Source: Candidatus Omnitrophota bacterium
GTDB lineage: Bacteria; Omnitrophota; Gorgyraeia; Tantalellales; Tantalellaceae
Length of the DNA stretch: 64,000 bases
Assembly (NCBI GenBank): GCA_024277375.1
Contig: JAJRVD010000053.1
Coordinates: forward strand, 8,680 to 72,679
Direction of reading: 5' to 3'
Of the stretch, positions 1 to 7,393 are shown one piece after another (position 1 is the first letter of the stretch; the number at the start of each line of letters is the position of its first letter). Both the position numbers and the translations under genes were made by a program. The notes below the pieces were generated by a model. The model was not told the DNA's origin. It did no database searches and worked only from the letters and a program-made list of their open reading frames with translations.

Positions 1-1071
1 GGATTTACTATGACAAATGGAAAGTTCGGGAAATTGTTCGGCTCGCCTCGCCGCCGGCCTGAAAGCAAGCTTGAACAGAGGCATATGGATCTGGCCAGAT
101 CCGTTCAGGTCGTTACAGAGATGGCGATGCTTAATATAGCGAAATATGTCCACGCGCGAACGGGGAGTGACAATCTTTGTCTTGCCGGGGGAGTTGCTCT
201 TAATTGCGTAGCGAATGGTAAAATATTGACCGAAGGACTTTTTAAGAATGTCTGGATACAGCCGGCCGCGTCTGACGCGGGAGGAGCGTTGGGGGCCGCG
301 TTGGCAGGGTGGTATGAATATTTGGGGAATGACCGATCAGCCGATGGAAGCGGAGATCAACAGAAAGCGAGTCTCCTCGGGCCTTCTTTTTCGGATGATG
401 AGATAGAAAAATATTTGAATGAAAATAAGATACCATTCGAGAAACTTACAAGCGAAAGTGTTTCTGAGAGCGTTTCAGATCTTTTGGCCGATCAGAAGGT
501 CATAGGATGGTTTCAAGGGCGAATGGAGTTCGGCCCACGTGCTTTGGGTTCAAGAAGTATTCTCGGAGATCCAAGATCTAAGGAGATGCAGTCTATCCTT
601 AATAGAAAAATAAAGTTCAGAGAATCTTTCAGACCCTTCGCGCCAAGTGTTATTCTGGAAAAGACGAGTGAATGCTTTAACCTGAAAGGTGAAAGTCCCT
701 ATATGCTTATTGTGGCACCCATTAATGAGAAACAAAGAGAGTCTGTTCCAAAGGAAAGTGAGCTTGCGGGATTGACGAAACTAAGCGTAAAAAGATCCCG
801 GATCCCGGCGGTCACGCATGTAGATTATTCCGCGAGGGTTCAGACCGTAAAGCGCGAGGATAATCCTGTATTTTATGACATGATCAAGAAATTTAATGAT
901 GATCACGGTTGTCCGGTGGTTATAAACACTTCATTCAATGTAAGGGGTGAGCCCATAGTTTGCACTCAGGAGGAAGCGTACAAATGTTTTATGCGGACAA
1001 ATATGGACTTCTTAATAATGGGTTCGTATCTTGTTGATAAGGCAGAACAGCGTGCAGCGTACAGCGCATAG
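1..1071 (+). CDS. Carbamoyltransferase (NodU/CmcH family), C-terminal ~355 aa; N-terminus lies upstream of the window
   Basis: Open frame runs to position 1. Translation has the carbamoyltransferase C-domain signatures LCLAGGVALNCVANGKI and NTSFNVRGEPIVCTQEEA. Stop TAG at 1069..1071. Confidence 0.8.
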   Translation, partial: GFTMTNGKFGKLFGSPRRRPESKLEQRHMDLARSVQVVTEMAMLNIAKYVHARTGSDNLCLAGGVALNCVANGKILTEGLFKNVWIQPAASDAGGALGAALAGWYEYLGNDRSADGSGDQQKASLLGPSFSDDEIEKYLNENKIPFEKLTSESVSESVSDLLADQKVIGWFQGRMEFGPRALGSRSILGDPRSKEMQSILNRKIKFRESFRPFAPSVILEKTSECFNLKGESPYMLIVAPINEKQRESVPKESELAGLTKLSVKRSRIPAVTHVDYSARVQTVKREDNPVFYDMIKKFNDDHGCPVVINTSFNVRGEPIVCTQEEAYKCFMRTNMDFLIMGSYLVDKAEQRAAYSA

Positions 1072-1155
1072 AGCATGGCGTATGGGCAGTAAATAGAGAA
1101 GATCCCTCGGTTTCGCTCGGGATGACAAGCTTTTAAAGTTGCTAAGCAAAAAATT

Positions 1156-1236
1156 GCATACAACATGTTGTAGGGGTTCGATTTATCGAACCCGATATAA
1201 CGGGTTTGATGAATCAAGCCCCTACATTATGACATA
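1156..1236 (+). repeat. Structured intergenic repeat family A, copy 1 (core 1169..1226)
   Basis: catacaacatgTTGTAGGGGTTCGATTtATCGAACCCGATATAACGGGtTTGATGAATCAAGCCCCTACATTATGACA. Confidence 0.8.
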
Positions 1237-1250
1237 GCCTGGAAGCGGGG

Positions 1251-1664
1251 ATGACGGTTTTTATGAAGAAAGAAATTACTAAAAAAGATCTAAGACAATT
1301 TGGGGTGGTTTTTGCGGTTATACTTACCCTGATAGGGTTTCTCCAGATGGGAAAGGGGTATGACGTTGTCGCTTCGTTTTTCTGGATAAGCGCGATCCAT
1401 ATGGTCGCTTTCGGGTTGATAGCCCCGGTACTGCTAAAACCTATTTTTCACATTTTCACGAAGGTAGCGCATGCCATGGGTTGGGTTAACACCCGGGTTG
1501 TCCTGGTCCTCGTATATTATTTGATCTTAACTCCGATCGGTCTCATAATGCGGTTGTTTAGAAAGGATCTTTTAGGGAGCCATATTGACAGGTCAAAAGA
1601 GACTTATTGGATAAAAAGAAAAGTTGGCGCGGTCTCTAAAGAGAGCTTGGAGAAACAGTTCTAA
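1251..1664 (+). CDS. SxtJ-like small polytopic membrane protein
   Basis: 137 aa with three hydrophobic segments. Sits immediately after a carbamoyltransferase, as in the conserved carbamoyltransferase/SxtJ/SxtK arrangement. Family assignment is from memory of the family, not from a search. Confidence 0.5.
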   Translation: MTVFMKKEITKKDLRQFGVVFAVILTLIGFLQMGKGYDVVASFFWISAIHMVAFGLIAPVLLKPIFHIFTKVAHAMGWVNTRVVLVLVYYLILTPIGLIMRLFRKDLLGSHIDRSKETYWIKRKVGAVSKESLEKQF

Positions 1665-1699
1665 TTCAGTTATAAGCGTGGAAGTGGGTGTCGTTGCGA

Positions 1700-1745
1700 G
1701 GGCACGAAGTGCCCGAAGCAATCTTTTATTTGTTGAGATTGCTTC
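1700..1745 (+). terminator. Two consecutive hairpins after the SxtJ-like gene: GGGCAC-GAA-GTGCCC, then GAAGCAATC-(13 nt, T-rich)-GATTGCTTC
   Basis: Found by direct inspection. They lie immediately upstream of repeat A copy 2. Confidence 0.35.
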
Positions 1746-1746
1746 G

Positions 1747-1856
1747 TCGTAATTTGTTTTGCGGATGGTCGTATGTAATATGTTGTAGGGGTTCGATTCA
1801 TCGAACCCGATATGACGGGCTTGACAAATCAAGCTCCTACATTATGCCACAGTCTG
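1747..1856 (+). repeat. Structured intergenic repeat family A, copy 2
   Basis: tcgtaatttgttttgcggatggtcg ... TGTAGGGGTTCGATTCATCGAACCCGATATgACGGGCTTGAcaAATCAAGCtCCTACATTATGcCACagtctga. Near-identical to copy 3 over about 110 nt. Confidence 0.85.
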
Positions 1857-1881
1857 AAGGGCAAGGCTACGAGGAGAACAC

Positions 1882-2040
1882 ATGGGGAAGATATCTATTT
1901 TGAAAGAATTTTGGGAGTTTTTGAAGGAAAGAAAAAAATGGTGGCTCTTGCCGATAATTATAGTGTTGCTTCTTTTGGGGCTTTTGATAATTTTTACAGA
2001 ATCTGCGGCTGTAGCGCCATTTGTTTATACGTTGTTCTAA
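1882..2040 (+). CDS. DUF5989/SxtK-like 52-aa membrane peptide. It is absent from the ORF track because it is under 60 aa. It lies in frame +1 of the spurious track ORF 1812..2045.
   Basis: Hand translation gives [52 protein letters not shown]. This matches the DUF5989 pattern (EFWxFLKxRKKxWLLPIIxVLLLLGxLIxxTxxSAxAPFIYTLF) and the position after SxtJ. Confidence 0.55.
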
Positions 2041-2052
2041 TCTAAGGGGGAA

Positions 2053-2989
2053 TATGAGGATACTATTAACCGGTGGGTCCGGGTTTCTCGGGTCTCATTT
2101 GGCGGAGAGATTATTGGCGGATGGGCACCAGGTAGTGTGCATGGACAATCTTATAACTGGCCGGGTGGAAAACATCGATCATCTCGCGAGTGATAAGAAC
2201 TTTGAGTTCATAAAGCATGACGTGTCGAAGTATATCGTTGTAAAAGGGCAAATAGATTGTGTCCTGCATTTCGCGTCTCCGGCCAGTCCGATAGATTATC
2301 TGGAGCATCCGATCAAAACGTTAAAGGTGGGTTCTCTCGGCACACATAACGCGCTCGGAGTCGCTAAAGCACACGGGTCCAGATTTTTGCTCGCGTCCAC
2401 TTCAGAGGTTTATGGGGATCCTCTGGTGAACCCTCAGCCGGAAACATATTGGGGTAATGTAAACCCGGTAGGACCGCGAGGATGCTATGATGAGGCAAAA
2501 CGTTTCGGTGAGGCCATAACAATGGCGTATCACAGGACACATGGTATTGACGCGAAGATCGTGCGGATATTTAATACATACGGTGAGCGTATGCGCCATC
2601 ATGACGGGAGGGTCGTTCCGAACTTTATTGATCAGGCACTCAAGGGAGAGCCTATTACGGTTTATGGTGATGGGTCTCAAACAAGAAGCTTTTGTTATGT
2701 TTCGGACCTGGTTGACGGGATCGTGCGTCTTATGATGTCGGATCTGAATGAACCGGTCAATATAGGCAATCCGACTGAGATGAATGTTCTGGATTTTGCC
2801 AAAAAAATAATTGAGTTAACCGGTAGTAAAAGTGAGATAATTTTTGAGGATCTGCCGGTCAATGACCCAAAAGTGAGAAGACCGGATATAACAAAGGCTA
2901 AAGCGAAGTTTGGATGGGAGCCGAAAGTTGATCTGGCTGAAGGGCTCGCGAGAGTTATTAAATGGTTTAAGGCGAATTATAAGGAATAA
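2053..2989 (+). CDS. NAD-dependent epimerase/dehydratase, UDP-glucuronate decarboxylase (UXS/ArnA C-domain) type
   Basis: [16 protein letters not shown] Rossmann motif with a UXS-like YDEAKR catalytic dyad context. RBS aagggggaa lies upstream of ATG 2053. The track ORF starts earlier at TTG 2021. Confidence 0.7.
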
Positions 2990-3003
2990 ACAGGGAGCAT
3001 GAG

Positions 3004-4179
3004 GTGCATAAACCGCACGGTGGTAAATTAATAGATAGAACACTCGACGCCAAGAGCGCCGCTGAATGGAAAGATATGGAGGGGAAGCTTCCCGAAATAG
3101 TTCTTGTTCATGAGAAAGTGCAGGAAGTGACGAATATCGCTTTCGGTGTTTTTAGTCCCCTTGAAGGATTTATGGACGAAGCGGATTATAAGAGCGTTAT
3201 TGGAAGATCCCGTTTAGCCAACGATCTGGCTTGGACTATCCCTATTGTGCTTGATGTGGACATTAAAGTATCAAAAGACTATACGCGCGGTGACAATGTT
3301 TTGCTTAAAGATGTAACGGGAAAGATCTTTGCGGTGCTTACGGTAAGCGATATATACGATTATGATAAAGCGGAATACTCTAAGAATGTTTTTGGAACGG
3401 ACGATAAAACGCATCCAGGCGTCAGGAAAATATTTGATATGAAGGACGTTTTGGTAGGAGGGAAGATAGATCTTATAGAAGAAGCAGAAAACGATTTTTC
3501 ACGGTACACATTACATCCTAAGGAAACGCGAGTGCTTTTTAAAGAAAAGGGATGGAGGGACGTAGCGGGGTTTCAGACGCGTAATGTCCCACATTTGGGG
3601 CACGAGTTTGTTCAAAAGACCGCTTTATCGTTTGTGGACGCTGTTTTTATAAATCCCGTTATTGGAAGAAAGAAGTGCGGGGATTTTAAAGATGAAGTTA
3701 TTCTCGAGGCGTATGAAGAGCTGCTTAAGCATTACTTCTTAAAAGAAAGAGTGTTCATGTCCATTCTTTTAACTGAGATGAGGTATGCGGGGCCAAAGGA
3801 GGCGGTATTTCACGCGATAATCAGGAAGAATTTCGGGTGTACCCATTTTATTGTAGGCAGGGACCATGCCGGTGTAGGAGATTATTACGGTCAATTTGCG
3901 GCACATGATATTTTTGATCAATTCCCTGAGATTGAAATAACTCCCATATTTTTCAGGACCTTTTTTTATTGTCGCAAATGCGCCAGTATCGCAAATGATA
4001 AAACATGCCCGCATAACGAGGCAGACAAAGTTGTTTTTAAGGGCACTCATATTCGGAACCTTTTGCAGAAGGGGGATGTTCCCCCTGAGAGTATGATGCG
4101 ACCGGAAGTGACAAAAGTTATTCTTTCGCATAAGGATCTATTTGTCGGTTCTTCTCCCCCCGAGGCAGTAGTTGGGTAG
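3004..4179 (+). CDS. sat: Sulfate adenylyltransferase (ATP sulfurylase)
   Basis: GFQTRNVPHLGHEFV (QTRN/HxxH ATP-sulfurylase motifs) and GRDHAGV. GTG start with RBS cagggagca. Confidence 0.8.
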   Translation: MHKPHGGKLIDRTLDAKSAAEWKDMEGKLPEIVLVHEKVQEVTNIAFGVFSPLEGFMDEADYKSVIGRSRLANDLAWTIPIVLDVDIKVSKDYTRGDNVLLKDVTGKIFAVLTVSDIYDYDKAEYSKNVFGTDDKTHPGVRKIFDMKDVLVGGKIDLIEEAENDFSRYTLHPKETRVLFKEKGWRDVAGFQTRNVPHLGHEFVQKTALSFVDAVFINPVIGRKKCGDFKDEVILEAYEELLKHYFLKERVFMSILLTEMRYAGPKEAVFHAIIRKNFGCTHFIVGRDHAGVGDYYGQFAAHDIFDQFPEIEITPIFFRTFFYCRKCASIANDKTCPHNEADKVVFKGTHIRNLLQKGDVPPESMMRPEVTKVILSHKDLFVGSSPPEAVVG

Positions 4180-4198
4180 GAGGGCTAAAGGAGTGGTA

Positions 4199-4795
4199 AT
4201 GGACGGGTTTACGATATGGTTTACAGGGCTTTCCGGATCAGGAAAAACAACTTTAGCGCATATGCTGGTTGATGAATTAAAAGATATGGGCCGCAAAGTT
4301 GAGCTTCTTGATGGAGACGTTATAAGAACAAATTTGAGTAAAGGACTGGGGTTCAGTAAGGAAGATCGTGACGAGAATATCAGAAGGGTGGGGTTTGTTT
4401 GTGAGCTGTTGTCGCGTAATGGCATTATCGCGATAGCTGCCTGTATTTCACCGTATAAAGATATTAGAGATTCTCATAGAGGAAAAATAGACAGGTTTTT
4501 TGAGGTTTTCACTAAATGTTCTATAGAAGAATGTATCAAACGCGATCCTAAGGGGAATTATAAAAAAGTACTTTCCGGAGAGATCAAAAATTATACAGGT
4601 ATAGATGATCCTTATGAAGAGCCGTCTGACCATGAGATTACCGTTGAGACAGACAAAGAGTCTCCGGAAGAAAGTTTGAGAAAAATAATTAATAAACTGA
4701 AAGAATTAAAGTTTCTTCCAGATTGTCGATCACATTGCGATAAGGAAGAAGAGAAAATTATTAAGGATAGGTTGAAATCGTTAGGGTACCTGTAA
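4199..4795 (+). CDS. cysC: Adenylyl-sulfate kinase (APS kinase)
   Basis: P-loop FTGLSGSGKTTLA and the APS kinase DGDVIRTNLSKGLGFSKEDRDENIRR motif. ATG 4199 preceded by RBS aaaggag. Confidence 0.85.
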   Translation: MDGFTIWFTGLSGSGKTTLAHMLVDELKDMGRKVELLDGDVIRTNLSKGLGFSKEDRDENIRRVGFVCELLSRNGIIAIAACISPYKDIRDSHRGKIDRFFEVFTKCSIEECIKRDPKGNYKKVLSGEIKNYTGIDDPYEEPSDHEITVETDKESPEESLRKIINKLKELKFLPDCRSHCDKEEEKIIKDRLKSLGYL

Positions 4796-4811
4796 GAGGA
4801 AAGTGTTTGCG

Positions 4812-6242
4812 ATGAAAAAAGTATTGGTTATAGGATTGGATTGCGCTGCGTTGAAGATAGTTTTTGATCGACGTGATCAGTTGCCAAATATTGATAAGAT
4901 GTTGTCGGGTGGAATATCCGCGCCATTCAGAAGCGGACATCCTCCGATAACGATACCGGCATGGATGACGATGACCTCGGGAAAAGACGCGGGAGAACAT
5001 GGGGTTTATGGGTTCAGGCATAGAGTGACGGGAACGTATAACGATATTAAGTTAAGTTCCGCCAGTAGTTTTAAAAAAAGCGCTATTTGGGATATTATAG
5101 CGGAAAAGGGGCTTAAGTCCTGTCTGGTGGGTGTGCCGCCAAGTTATCCGATATCGGAAGTAAATGGCAGTAAGGTGTCTTGTTTTATGACTCCCGGTTC
5201 TGATAAGGAATATACGTACCCTTCTTCGCTGAAGGCGGAATTGGAAGAGAGGTTTGGACCTTTCAAATTTGATGTCGAATTTCGTACTTCTGATCGCGAT
5301 AAATTAAAAGAAGAGCTCTTTGAAATGACATTGCAACATTTTGAGGTGATAAAATATCTTCTCCTGAATAAACCATGGCAGTTTTTCATGTTTGTTGAGA
5401 TAGGTGTGGATCGCATCCAACACGCGTTTTGGAAATTCTTTGACAAAACACACCATGGTTATACCCAGGGCAATGAATATGAAGACGTGATCATGGAGTA
5501 TTACCGTATGTTGGATAAGGGGATAGGAGAGATACTTGATCTGGTAGATACTGATACCGTAATTTTTGTTGTTTCCGATCATGGCGCGAAAGCTATTAAA
5601 GGAGTGTTTTGTATAAATCAGTGGCTTGTTGATAAAGGGTATCTTGTGCTAAGAAATACGCCTGCCGAGGGAACTCCTATCGAGCTGGCTGAAGTGGATT
5701 GGGGGCGGACAAAGGTATGGGCATGGGGAGGCTATTATTCCCGTGTGTTCTTTAATGTGAAAAACAGGGAAAAAGAGGGTATTATAGATCAGGATGAATA
5801 TGATTTTTTGAGAGATAAGGTCAAAAATGAGCTTATTTCTGTCCGCGGACCCGAAGGTGAAGAATGGAAAACCCGCGCTTTTCGTCCGGAAGAGTTGTAT
5901 GATGAATTAAATGGAGATTATCCGGATCTTATGGTATATTTTGATGACCTTTCATGGCGAGCCGCTGGGACTTTAGGCCATAAGAGTATGTATTTAAACG
6001 AGAACGATACCGGTCCGGATGACGCTGTGCACGATTGGGAAGGTGTTTTTGTGATGTATGACCCCGAGAAGCAAAGTGGGGAGCGGCGTGATGTAGTGGA
6101 TATCCTAGATTTCGCGCCGACAGTTCTGGAGATAATGGGAGTAGAGCAGCCCGCGGATATGAAGGGAAAAAGTGTTTTGCAAAGAAACAATAATGATAGA
6201 ATCCTGCAAAATGGAACTTTCGTTATTCGGACTCTGTCGTAA
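4812..6242 (+). CDS. Alkaline-phosphatase-superfamily protein, type I phosphodiesterase/nucleotide pyrophosphatase-like
   Basis: VLVIGLDCAA followed by PPITIPAWMTMTSGKDAGEHGVYG (Thr-nucleophile NPP-type core) and a VVSDHG metal-ligand motif. Confidence 0.6.
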   Translation: MKKVLVIGLDCAALKIVFDRRDQLPNIDKMLSGGISAPFRSGHPPITIPAWMTMTSGKDAGEHGVYGFRHRVTGTYNDIKLSSASSFKKSAIWDIIAEKGLKSCLVGVPPSYPISEVNGSKVSCFMTPGSDKEYTYPSSLKAELEERFGPFKFDVEFRTSDRDKLKEELFEMTLQHFEVIKYLLLNKPWQFFMFVEIGVDRIQHAFWKFFDKTHHGYTQGNEYEDVIMEYYRMLDKGIGEILDLVDTDTVIFVVSDHGAKAIKGVFCINQWLVDKGYLVLRNTPAEGTPIELAEVDWGRTKVWAWGGYYSRVFFNVKNREKEGIIDQDEYDFLRDKVKNELISVRGPEGEEWKTRAFRPEELYDELNGDYPDLMVYFDDLSWRAAGTLGHKSMYLNENDTGPDDAVHDWEGVFVMYDPEKQSGERRDVVDILDFAPTVLEIMGVEQPADMKGKSVLQRNNNDRILQNGTFVIRTLS

Positions 6243-6346
6243 TTCGTTTTGCGGATGGTCGCATACAGTACATTGTAGGGGTTCGATTCATCGAACCCGA
6301 TATAACGGGCTTGATGAATCAAGCCCCTACATTATGACACGATCTG
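6237..6346 (+). repeat. Structured intergenic repeat family A, copy 3
   Basis: tcgtaattcgttttgcggatggtcg ... TGTAGGGGTTCGATTCATCGAACCCGATATAACGGGCTTGATGAATCAAGCCCCTACATTATGACACgatctga. Confidence 0.85.
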
Positions 6347-6403
6347 ATTGAAAAAACAGCGTTTTGCATGAGTCTAACAATAGTAATGTAAAGGAGATAG
6401 CCA

Positions 6404-7393
6404 ATGGCTAAGAAAAAGGCATTGATAACGGGTATAACGGGACAGGATGGTAGCTACCTGGCGGAGTATTTGTTTGAACTGGGTTATGAAGTGCATGGTA
6501 TTGTCAGGCGTGTAGCTTTGGAAGACCAGCGCCATCGTATGTGGCGTATACGACATATACAGGACCAGGTAACACTGCATTGCGGCTCTCTGGAGAGTTA
6601 TCCAAGCATTTTCAAGGTAGTAATGGATGTGCAGCCCGATGAATGTTACCATCTGGCGGCCCAAAGTTTTGTTACATATTCGTTCGAGGACGAATTTTCG
6701 ACGTTTAATATAAATATTAACGGTACGCATTATGTCATATCCGCGCTTAAGAACGCGTGTCCGGAATGTAAGTTTTATTTCGCGGCTTCCAGTGAAATGT
6801 TCGGTAAGGTGCAGGAAGTTCCGCAGTCGGAGACGACGCCATTCCACCCGCGGTCTGTGTATGGGATATCGAAAGTAGCGGGCTATGATCTGACGAGGAA
6901 TTATCGCGAGGCTTACAATATGTACGCCGCGAGCGGAATCCTGTTTAATCACGAGTCTCCTCGCAGAGGGTTTGAGTTTGTTACACGAAAGATCACGTCA
7001 GCCGCCGCGCGCATAAAACTCGGGCTATCAGATAAACTGTTGCTTGGTAATTTGGAAGCTAAAAGAGATTGGGGACACTCCCGGGAATATGTAAAAGTTA
7101 TGCACACGATGCTTCAACAGGATGTGCCGACGGATTATGTAATAGGTACGGGAGAGACACATTCGGTTCAGGAATTTGTTGACCTGACTTTTAAGTCTTT
7201 GGATCTTGATTATAAAAAGTATGTGGGGGTAGATGAGAACTTTTTCAGGCCCGCGGAAGTGGATCTCTTGATCGCCGATACCGATAAGGCAAAGAAAGAA
7301 CTGAACTGGGAATATGCTCTTACTTTTGAACAGTTGGTAAATGAAATGGTAAAAGAGGATTATGATCTTTTAAAAAAGAGACATAATTTGTAG
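6404..7393 (+). CDS. gmd: GDP-mannose 4,6-dehydratase
   Basis: ALITGITGQDGSYLAEYL, FYFAASSEMFG and YGISKVAGYDLTRNYREAY are classic Gmd blocks. Confidence 0.85.
   Translation: MAKKKALITGITGQDGSYLAEYLFELGYEVHGIVRRVALEDQRHRMWRIRHIQDQVTLHCGSLESYPSIFKVVMDVQPDECYHLAAQSFVTYSFEDEFSTFNININGTHYVISALKNACPECKFYFAASSEMFGKVQEVPQSETTPFHPRSVYGISKVAGYDLTRNYREAYNMYAASGILFNHESPRRGFEFVTRKITSAAARIKLGLSDKLLLGNLEAKRDWGHSREYVKVMHTMLQQDVPTDYVIGTGETHSVQEFVDLTFKSLDLDYKKYVGVDENFFRPAEVDLLIADTDKAKKELNWEYALTFEQLVNEMVKEDYDLLKKRHNL

Follow-up and report, generated by a model that had tools for sequence, protein, structure and literature searches.

Three intergenic repeats in an Omnitrophota gene cluster are probably head-to-head pairs of GTAG-tagged REPs

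What are the three structured repeats that lie between genes near the start of the 64-kb stretch of Candidatus Omnitrophota DNA studied here (contig JAJRVD010000053.1; the whole stretch is called the window)? An earlier note had favored copies of an RNA element that folds into a three-way junction on the + strand. Our analysis leads to a different answer: the copies are very probably head-to-head pairs of GTAG-tagged repetitive extragenic palindromes (REPs), i.e., heterodimers resembling bacterial interspersed mosaic elements (BIMEs) and REPINs, which would spread in the manner proposed for REPs served by domesticated REP-associated tyrosine transposases (RAYTs), and no dedicated RNA regulator.

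Anatomy and conserved structure of the repeat

A repeat search of the window revealed one repeat family with three direct copies of ~112 nt each, all of them intergenic. When a core pattern of 37 nt was searched with a tolerance of 3 mismatches, it matched these three sites only, all on the + strand (0.00 chance matches expected from shuffles). The copies and their parts are as follows.

1131-1242, + strand: copy 1, 75% identity to the reference copy 2
1746-1857, + strand: copy 2, the reference
6236-6347, + strand: copy 3, 88% identity to the reference copy 2
1170..1193, + strand: REP unit H1 of copy 1, GTAG + GGGTTCGATTTATCGAACCC, 9-bp stem, TT loop
1194..1201, + strand: linker of copy 1, GATATAAC
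1202..1225, - strand: inverted REP unit H2 of copy 1, GTAGGGGCTTGATTCATCAAACCC on the - strand, with one stem G.T when read on the + strand
1785..1808, + strand: REP unit H1 of copy 2, GTAGGGGTTCGATTCATCGAACCC
1809..1816, + strand: linker of copy 2, GATATGAC
1817..1840, - strand: inverted REP unit H2 of copy 2, GTAGGAGCTTGATTTGTCAAGCCC on the - strand, with loop CAAA and one G.T
6275..6298, + strand: REP unit H1 of copy 3, GTAGGGGTTCGATTCATCGAACCC
6299..6306, + strand: linker of copy 3, GATATAAC
6307..6330, - strand: inverted REP unit H2 of copy 3, GTAGGGGCTTGATTCATCAAGCCC on the - strand

The core comprises 56 nt: GTAG and a 20-nt palindrome (H1), an 8-nt linker, and a second 20-nt palindrome (H2) followed by CTAC. 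Its consensus reads T-GTAG-GGGTTCGA-TT(C/T)A-TCGAACCC in the 5' half, GATAT(A/G)AC in the linker, and GGG(C/T)TTGA-(TGAA/CAAA)-TCAAGC(C/T)C-CTAC-A in the 3' half. In each arm, a 9-bp stem and a 2-nt loop make up a perfect palindrome of 20 nt, and GTAG lies directly 5' of it on the arm's own strand, which is the + strand for H1 and the - strand for H2 (where the tag reads CTAC on +). All six units in the window thus consist of GTAG plus a 20-nt palindrome, and the dimer is built from a REP with a TY loop, 8 nt, and an inverted REP of a sister subtype. The previously described anatomy of three structured intergenic copies with H1, linker, and H2 was confirmed in the sequence, as were the stem changes (C>T in the H2 5' arm of copy 1 and in the H2 3' arm of copy 2) and the loop variants (TTCA/TTTA and TGAA/CAAA). 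The A>G change in the copy 2 linker was absent from the earlier list. The H2 unit of copy 2 is the most diverged of the six.

Which structure is conserved was judged from pair counts in an alignment of 13 related dimers that have an 8-nt linker. A model of two local hairpins left 97.1% of positions paired, and in H2 4/8 pairs were changed on both sides (15 cells), a level reached by 0/500 shuffles. For a single long hairpin, 83.4% were paired and covariation was at shuffle level (211/500). Over 61 distinct dimers, local pairs were Watson-Crick in 98% (H1) and 95% (H2) of cases, while cross pairs were Watson-Crick in 72% and mismatched in 19%. H1 and H2 are therefore real hairpins, as proposed before, and the long hairpin was ruled out as the conserved structure by the pair counts.

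The outer stem TGTAG/CTACA, which was thought to close the junction, fared differently: it corresponds to the invariant tags of two inverted REPs. Immediately outside the tags, position ±1 was paired in 43/63 dimers, and positions ±2 to ±5 were paired at chance. Since pairing is at chance beyond the tags, there is no evidence for a closed three-way junction. Predicted folding energies of the RNA were as follows.

Copy 1: long hairpin -37.6 kcal/mol, three-way junction -25.8 kcal/mol
Copy 2: long hairpin -24.8 kcal/mol, three-way junction -25.2 kcal/mol (tie)
Copy 3: long hairpin -35.5 kcal/mol, three-way junction -28.2 kcal/mol

The three-way junction is thus outcompeted by the long hairpin in copies 1 and 3 and ties with it in copy 2. 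When folded as DNA, long and local hairpins lay within a few kcal/mol of each other in copies 1 and 3, and the local hairpins were favored in copy 2 (-13.5 versus -5.2 kcal/mol). Both strands folded well; the RNA folds had z-scores of -5 to -11.

Strand, orientation, and the case for an RNA element

Could the repeat still be a dedicated cis-acting structured RNA, in which a + strand three-way junction would control processing, stability, or translation in the operon? Several observations speak for it. All three copies are flanked by co-directional genes on the + strand, both stem substitutions yield G.U on this strand, H1 lies on the sense strand 47:17 in related loci, and the z-scores given above are low; G.T pairs and transcribed locations have also been noted in the REP literature. 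On balance, we nevertheless consider this explanation improbable.

The argument that pairing was kept through G-U pairs only did not hold up. It drew on two informative substitutions, both C>T, and the change in the H1 loop is C>T on the + strand as well. GC skew of the + strand was strongly positive in every 4-kb bin of the window (+0.13 to +0.28). At such skew, C>T is the expected mutational direction, and G.T pairs are therefore expected from mutation bias alone. Moreover, A-C mismatches occur throughout the family: the stems of the 235 family units collected from related loci (see below) contained 20 G.T versus 14 A.C mismatches when read on the GTAG strand, and 13 G-U, 8 A-C, and 15 other mismatches when read in mRNA sense. 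A few G-U changes under strong strand skew are poor ground for calling a riboswitch-like RNA.

The orientation of the copies, which had been taken to point to the + strand RNA, has a counterpart in the whole family. Between co-directional genes, the GTAG strand of H1 was the sense strand 47:17 (p ~2e-4, with crude gene calls and non-independent loci). It was also the G-rich strand 67:35, and the two were discordant in 8 cases only, so that transcription and replication are confounded as causes of the bias. According to PMC6006769, IS200/IS605-type enzymes work on the lagging-strand template; the bias is therefore explained equally well by strand-specific insertion and by selection at the RNA level. 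Covariation cannot separate RNA from DNA either, because RAYTs recognize a single-stranded DNA hairpin.

Further points weigh against a dedicated RNA. The minus strand folds about equally well, and the RNA of copies 1 and 3 has a fold of lower energy than the three-way junction, whose outer stem consists of invariant tags. The element is absent at matching junctions of syntenic relatives, and identical units adjoin transposase genes and occupy every genomic context (both described below). A search of the window against Rfam, which had been suggested as a check, gave no match at the gathering threshold and nothing relevant at a permissive one; the best score at a copy was to mir-254 (19 bits versus a cut-off of 70, E 3.5).

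That the copies act as intrinsic terminators or attenuators along the operon is very improbable. They do offer stable GC-rich hairpins 33-121 nt past stop codons, but of 12 terminator-like sites in 900-6600 not one was located at a copy, and no T run follows either hairpin; instead, CTAC is followed by ATTATGAC.

Relatives of the repeat and linked RAYT genes

Relatives were sought with a strict pattern that spanned H1 and the linker (...CCCGATAT) and is matched by all three window copies. It had 0 matches among GTDB species representatives and was found on 11 metagenomic contigs. GTAG plus H1 alone occurred, among the matches listed, in >105 stretches of metagenome-assembled genomes (MAGs) from over a dozen phyla; labels of MAGs with exact H1 included Atribacterota, Omnitrophota, WOR-3, Desulfobacteraceae, Clostridia, Auribacterota, Zixiibacteriota, Planctomycetia, Chloroflexi, Gammaproteobacteria, and others. 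In these related loci (numbered with the prefix L), 55/124 H1 units were accompanied by a second palindrome with CTAC, across a linker of 2-117 nt. This partner is built as GGG-N4-AT(R)AAT-N4'-CCC and comes in >10 complementary N4 variants, among them TCGG, CTTG, GCGG, CGCG, CGCA, CGCC, and CTCA.

A signature search of the loci yielded 235 family units, in which the loop on the GTAG strand was TT in 125 and TC in 96. Adjacent units were paired with GTAG outside in 63 cases, with GTAG inside in 15, and in tandem in 8. Only 21/235 units lay inside crude ORFs, yet every genomic context was represented, including convergent, divergent, and intragenic ones. Dimers with a GATAT-type linker, including the whole doublet with linker GATATNNN, recurred at unrelated sites.

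Two side observations concern these relatives. Only four IMG/VR contigs classed as viral (L122-L125) carry exact GTAG-H1. In L017, L029, L037, L051, and L078, a further GC-rich palindrome, 20-40 nt long, splits the loop of an H2-type partner (in L029, for example, GGGCTTGA-cctgcccgcc...ggcgggcggg-TGAATCAAGCCC), an arrangement that suggests nested insertions into REP loops.

The family is linked to genes for small Y1 transposases. A motif search of all loci found IS200-like ORFs in L054, L093, L107, and L115, all four of which matched Pfam Y1_Tnp. Their top match was NCBIfam NF047646 (REP-associated tyrosine transposase) at 67-91 bits, and the IS200 model (transpos_IS200) matched more weakly than REP_Tyr_transpos. 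The cut-off of NF047646, 80 bits, was passed by 2/4 ORFs, the other two scoring 67 and 72 bits. The RAYT proteins are small (141-155 aa), and the sole PDB sequence match of their clade was 4ER8, E. coli TnpArep. RAYTs of related loci are 51-92% identical.

REPs of the family flank RAYT genes of one clade. The RAYT gene of L117 is preceded by GTAGGGGTTCGATTTATCGAACCC and followed by GGGCTTGATGAATCAAGCCCCTAC, which are exactly the H1 and H2 of the window; the downstream REP is identical to H2 of copy 3. In L015 and L072, an exact H1 precedes the start of a partial RAYT gene by ~20 nt, and sister REPs adjoin the RAYT genes in L118-L121 and L054. In L115, from an Omnitrophota MAG, an H1 with a 4-nt deletion lies upstream of the gene and an intact inverted H1 downstream. 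For the L115 protein, 806 homologues were found at E<=1e-10, and JGI had named several of them RayT. All 5 homologues that were looked up (60-92% identity; contig labels Omnitrophota, Nitrospinae, Endomicrobiales, and Thermodesulfobacteriota) were flanked by REPs of the family.

Two of the sister loci showed additional features. In L118, the RAYT gene (2001-2432) is surrounded by at least 6 REP N4 subtypes (CTTG, TCGG, CTCA, CGCC, CGAC, and GCGG) in region ~1760-2640, i.e., across ~240 nt upstream and 200 nt downstream, and this arrangement suggests that one enzyme may tolerate many stem cores. In L121, the first 14 residues of the RAYT (2001-2468) showed a weak, non-significant match to window positions 1170-1211 and 6275-6316 (64%, E ~0.7). 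Such a match would fit a called start inside a REP, with the window's IGFDESNPYN ORFs (see below) as a related artefact.

Proposed mode of spread and comparison with known systems

From the published REP/RAYT system, the following course would be expected. A REP unit would fold into a hairpin on transiently single-stranded DNA; the cognate RAYT would recognize the hairpin together with the 5' GTAG and would cleave and rejoin nearby; and its action would spread REPs or whole doublets into intergenic DNA. A doublet would then resemble the two ends of a RAYT cassette minus the gene. Where doublets are transcribed, they may incidentally block 3' exonucleases or change the expression of neighbors, as proposed for other REPs. 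Of the roles considered earlier, a miniature mobile element came closest, and a dedicated RNA element is improbable.

Several points weigh against this assignment to REP doublets. Neither a motif regex nor tblastn detected a RAYT gene in the 64-kb window, and the 6 units in the window all lie within its first 6.4 kb. The ~112-nt repeat exceeds the doublet, which does not account for a 26-nt upstream block and a conserved 3' flank (see below). MAG binning errors could inflate the apparent range of phyla. Finally, the mechanism of REP dissemination lacks experimental proof even in E. coli (PMC8266576).

A different mobile origin would be a classical MITE (miniature inverted-repeat transposable element), derived by deletion from a DDE-type insertion sequence and carrying terminal inverted repeats and a target-site duplication of fixed length. 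The presence of a short inverted repeat in several copies would suit it, as would the long direct repeats that flank dimers in L002 (2484-2539, 23 nt), L010 (426-481, 15 nt), and L031 (5302-5392, 40 nt). We regard it as extremely improbable. Target-site duplications had been named as something to look for, and no regular, fixed-length one was detected: 54/62 of the head-to-head dimers listed had only 5-8 nt flanking repeats, as did random controls. The rare long repeats are unequal and offset, as if a REP and its flank had been duplicated locally in tandem. In addition, the arms are self-palindromic GTAG-tagged REPs, and the linked enzyme is a Y1/HUH RAYT and not a DDE transposase.

Three syntenic Omnitrophota loci contain the genes for the carbamoyltransferase, SxtJ, and DUF5989 in the same order as the window (SxtJ 52-57% identical), and the nearest relatives of the window's Sat are also from Omnitrophota (73-74%). 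No REP was present at the corresponding junctions of these three loci, which measure 12-75 and 36-105 nt, compared with 179 and 217 nt in the window. In relatives with Sat-CysC-Gmd, the junction just upstream of Gmd is <=18 nt. The syntenic relatives are distant, so these junctions are not precise empty sites; they do argue against a conserved operon-specific RNA. A long perfect palindrome without relation to the REP family, ctaacctgacagatctaaccaggttag...ctaacctggttagatctgtcaggttag, follows DUF5989 in an intergenic region of one syntenic Omnitrophota contig (L130, 3164-3310).

REPs are 20-50 nt palindromes after a conserved tetranucleotide, usually GTAG, and often occur as a REP plus an inverted REP with a variable linker (PMC8266576). 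The closest counterparts are the head-to-head dimers of GTAG-REPs surveyed by Di Nocera, De Gregorio & Rocco in 2013 (PMC3733652). According to that survey, many GTAG families have a TY loop; GTAG abuts the stem (6-13 bp there), the loop is a 2-nt TY, and subfamilies differ by complementary stem changes, all of which is shared by the present repeats. Shared, too, are the predominance of GTAG-outside dimers made of two different units with variable spacers, the mostly intergenic location between co-directional or convergent genes, occasional G.T pairs, and spurious small ORFs that arise from the repeat. In contrast, the body GGG-N4-ATTYAT-N4'-CCC could be matched to none of the 24 families published there, a comparison made without their consensus sequences. 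The hosts also differ, being uncultured Omnitrophota, Atribacterota, WOR-3, Desulfobacterota, and others and not Proteobacteria, and the same 24-mer is common to many phyla here.

Comparison with REPtrons (Nunvar 2010, PMC2817692; Corneloup 2021, PMC8266576; 4ER8) gave a similar picture. In related genomes, genes for Y1/HUH proteins lie between an upstream GTAG-REP and a downstream REP-CTAC, and the short perfect palindromes are like those of group 3 REPs (PMC8266576); unlike a REPtron, the window is without a RAYT, and the related-genome proteins have 141-155 aa with 2/4 below the NCBIfam cut-off. REPINs (Bertels & Rainey 2011, PMC3116915) are pairs of inverted REPs with conserved spacing that form one hairpin and replicate as a unit. 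In the window, the short spacing is conserved, the two inverted REPs can form one long hairpin (-27 to -40 kcal/mol), and the doublet with linker GATATNNN recurs at unrelated sites. In the family as a whole, however, spacers range between 2 and 117 nt, units combine with varying partners, and conservation does not extend to the long hairpin. The ends of IS200/IS605 elements share the subterminal hairpins that a Y1 HUH enzyme recognizes on single-stranded DNA, the lack of a target-site duplication, and a strand bias relative to replication, and H1...H2 of the window equals the two hairpins that bracket the L117 RAYT gene. By contrast, RAYTs are reported to be single-copy and domesticated and not self-copying insertion sequences, and the top NCBIfam match here was REP_Tyr_transpos and not transpos_IS200.

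The kind of element is thus well known; what is new is the family with the GGG-N4-ATTYAT-N4'-CCC body, and its hosts. A full-text literature search found no paper that links RAYT or REPIN with Omnitrophota or Atribacterota. For mobile-element biology, the repeats contribute a REP/RAYT family whose hosts are Omnitrophota and further uncultured phyla, and a near-identical REP across phyla with a modular, variable 4-nt stem core makes it convenient for questions of RAYT substrate recognition and cross-phylum movement.

The near-identity of the 24-nt unit across phyla and RAYTs that are 51-92% identical hint at horizontal spread, with MAG contamination as a caveat. We put forward, as a tentative and rather doubtful proposal, that one REP/RAYT system (REPtron) passed horizontally between uncultured, mostly anaerobic bacteria of more than a dozen phyla while its 24-nt hairpin stayed near-unchanged. 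If so, the window doublets would be miniature REPtrons with the left (H1) and right (H2) hairpins of the L117 cassette, and the enzyme would read a fixed GTAG-GGG...ATTYAT...CCC frame and tolerate any self-complementary 4-nt insert. Published work describes RAYTs as vertically inherited within genera and allows for transfer over long time scales. Horizontal spread, if true, would contrast with the view of RAYTs as vertical, lineage-specific, and domesticated, a view drawn mainly from studies in Proteobacteria.

Flanking sequences, neighboring palindromes, and gene setting

Beyond the doublet itself, the following sequences are conserved between copies.

1746..1771, + strand: 26-nt upstream block of copy 2, GTCGTAATTTGTTTTGCGGATGGTCG, common only to copy 3
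6236..6261, + strand: 26-nt upstream block of copy 3, GTCGTAATTCGTTTTGCGGATGGTCG, which supplies the TAA stop (6240-6242) of ORF 4803-6242
1226..1242, + strand: conserved 3' flank of copy 1, ATTATGACATAGCCTGG
1841..1857, + strand: conserved 3' flank of copy 2, ATTATGCCACAGTCTGA
6331..6347, + strand: conserved 3' flank of copy 3, ATTATGACACGATCTGA; a similar flank follows a dimer in L002

The 26-nt block (GTCGTAATTYGTTTTGCGGATGGTCG) is identical at 25/26 positions (96%) between copies 2 and 3, and the 13 nt between it and GTAG show 62% identity. A search of all fetched loci found no occurrence of the block outside these two copies. That the shared upstream stretch starts at a stop codon was correct for copy 3, where it contains the TAA of the phosphodiesterase-like gene, and incorrect for copy 2. 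In copy 3, GTCGTAAT of the block can pair with ATTATGAC at 6331-6338, after the dimer. We considered GTCGTAAT...ATTATGAC as a second, GTCAT-tagged palindrome that hosts the doublet as a nested insertion, with two copies only to judge from.

Small palindromes with other tags were found just upstream of copies 1 and 2: the GTCAT/GTCGT-tagged GTCATCCCGAGCGAAACCGAGGGATC at 1101-1126 (- strand) and GTCGTTGCGAGGGCACGAAGTGCCCGAAGCAATC at 1690-1723 (+ strand). Loose 9- to 11-nt patterns of their 5' ends had 50 and 27 matches across the window and the fetched loci; many of these are complete palindromes belonging to the two types, and 17 and 5 of the sites lie <=150 nt from a GTAG REP. These palindromes may represent further REP-like families. 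Between the GTCGT-tagged palindrome and the 26-nt block of copy 2, a separate hairpin, GAAGCAATCT-tttatttgttg-AGATTGCTTC, was observed at 1723-1753, whose motif AGATTGCTTCGTCG recurs in L001, L076, L083, L091, and L106.

The minus-strand ORFs at 966-1217, 1593-1832, and 5918-6322 share the motif IGFD(E/K)SNPYN, which is encoded by the repeat, in agreement with the earlier note; we take these ORFs to be spurious. For annotation, the REP doublets explain both the three odd intergenic repeats and the spurious minus-strand IGFDESNPYN ORFs.

According to Pfam, the order on the + strand is carbamoyltransferase, copy 1, SxtJ-like, copy 2, DUF5989, epimerase, Sat, APS kinase, phosphodiesterase-like, copy 3, and GDP-mannose dehydratase. 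Being located inside this + strand sugar-modification operon, the doublets are probably transcribed. Nearly all genes of the window are on the + strand, and the window as a whole (1-64000) represents one long polysaccharide and sugar-modification gene cluster.

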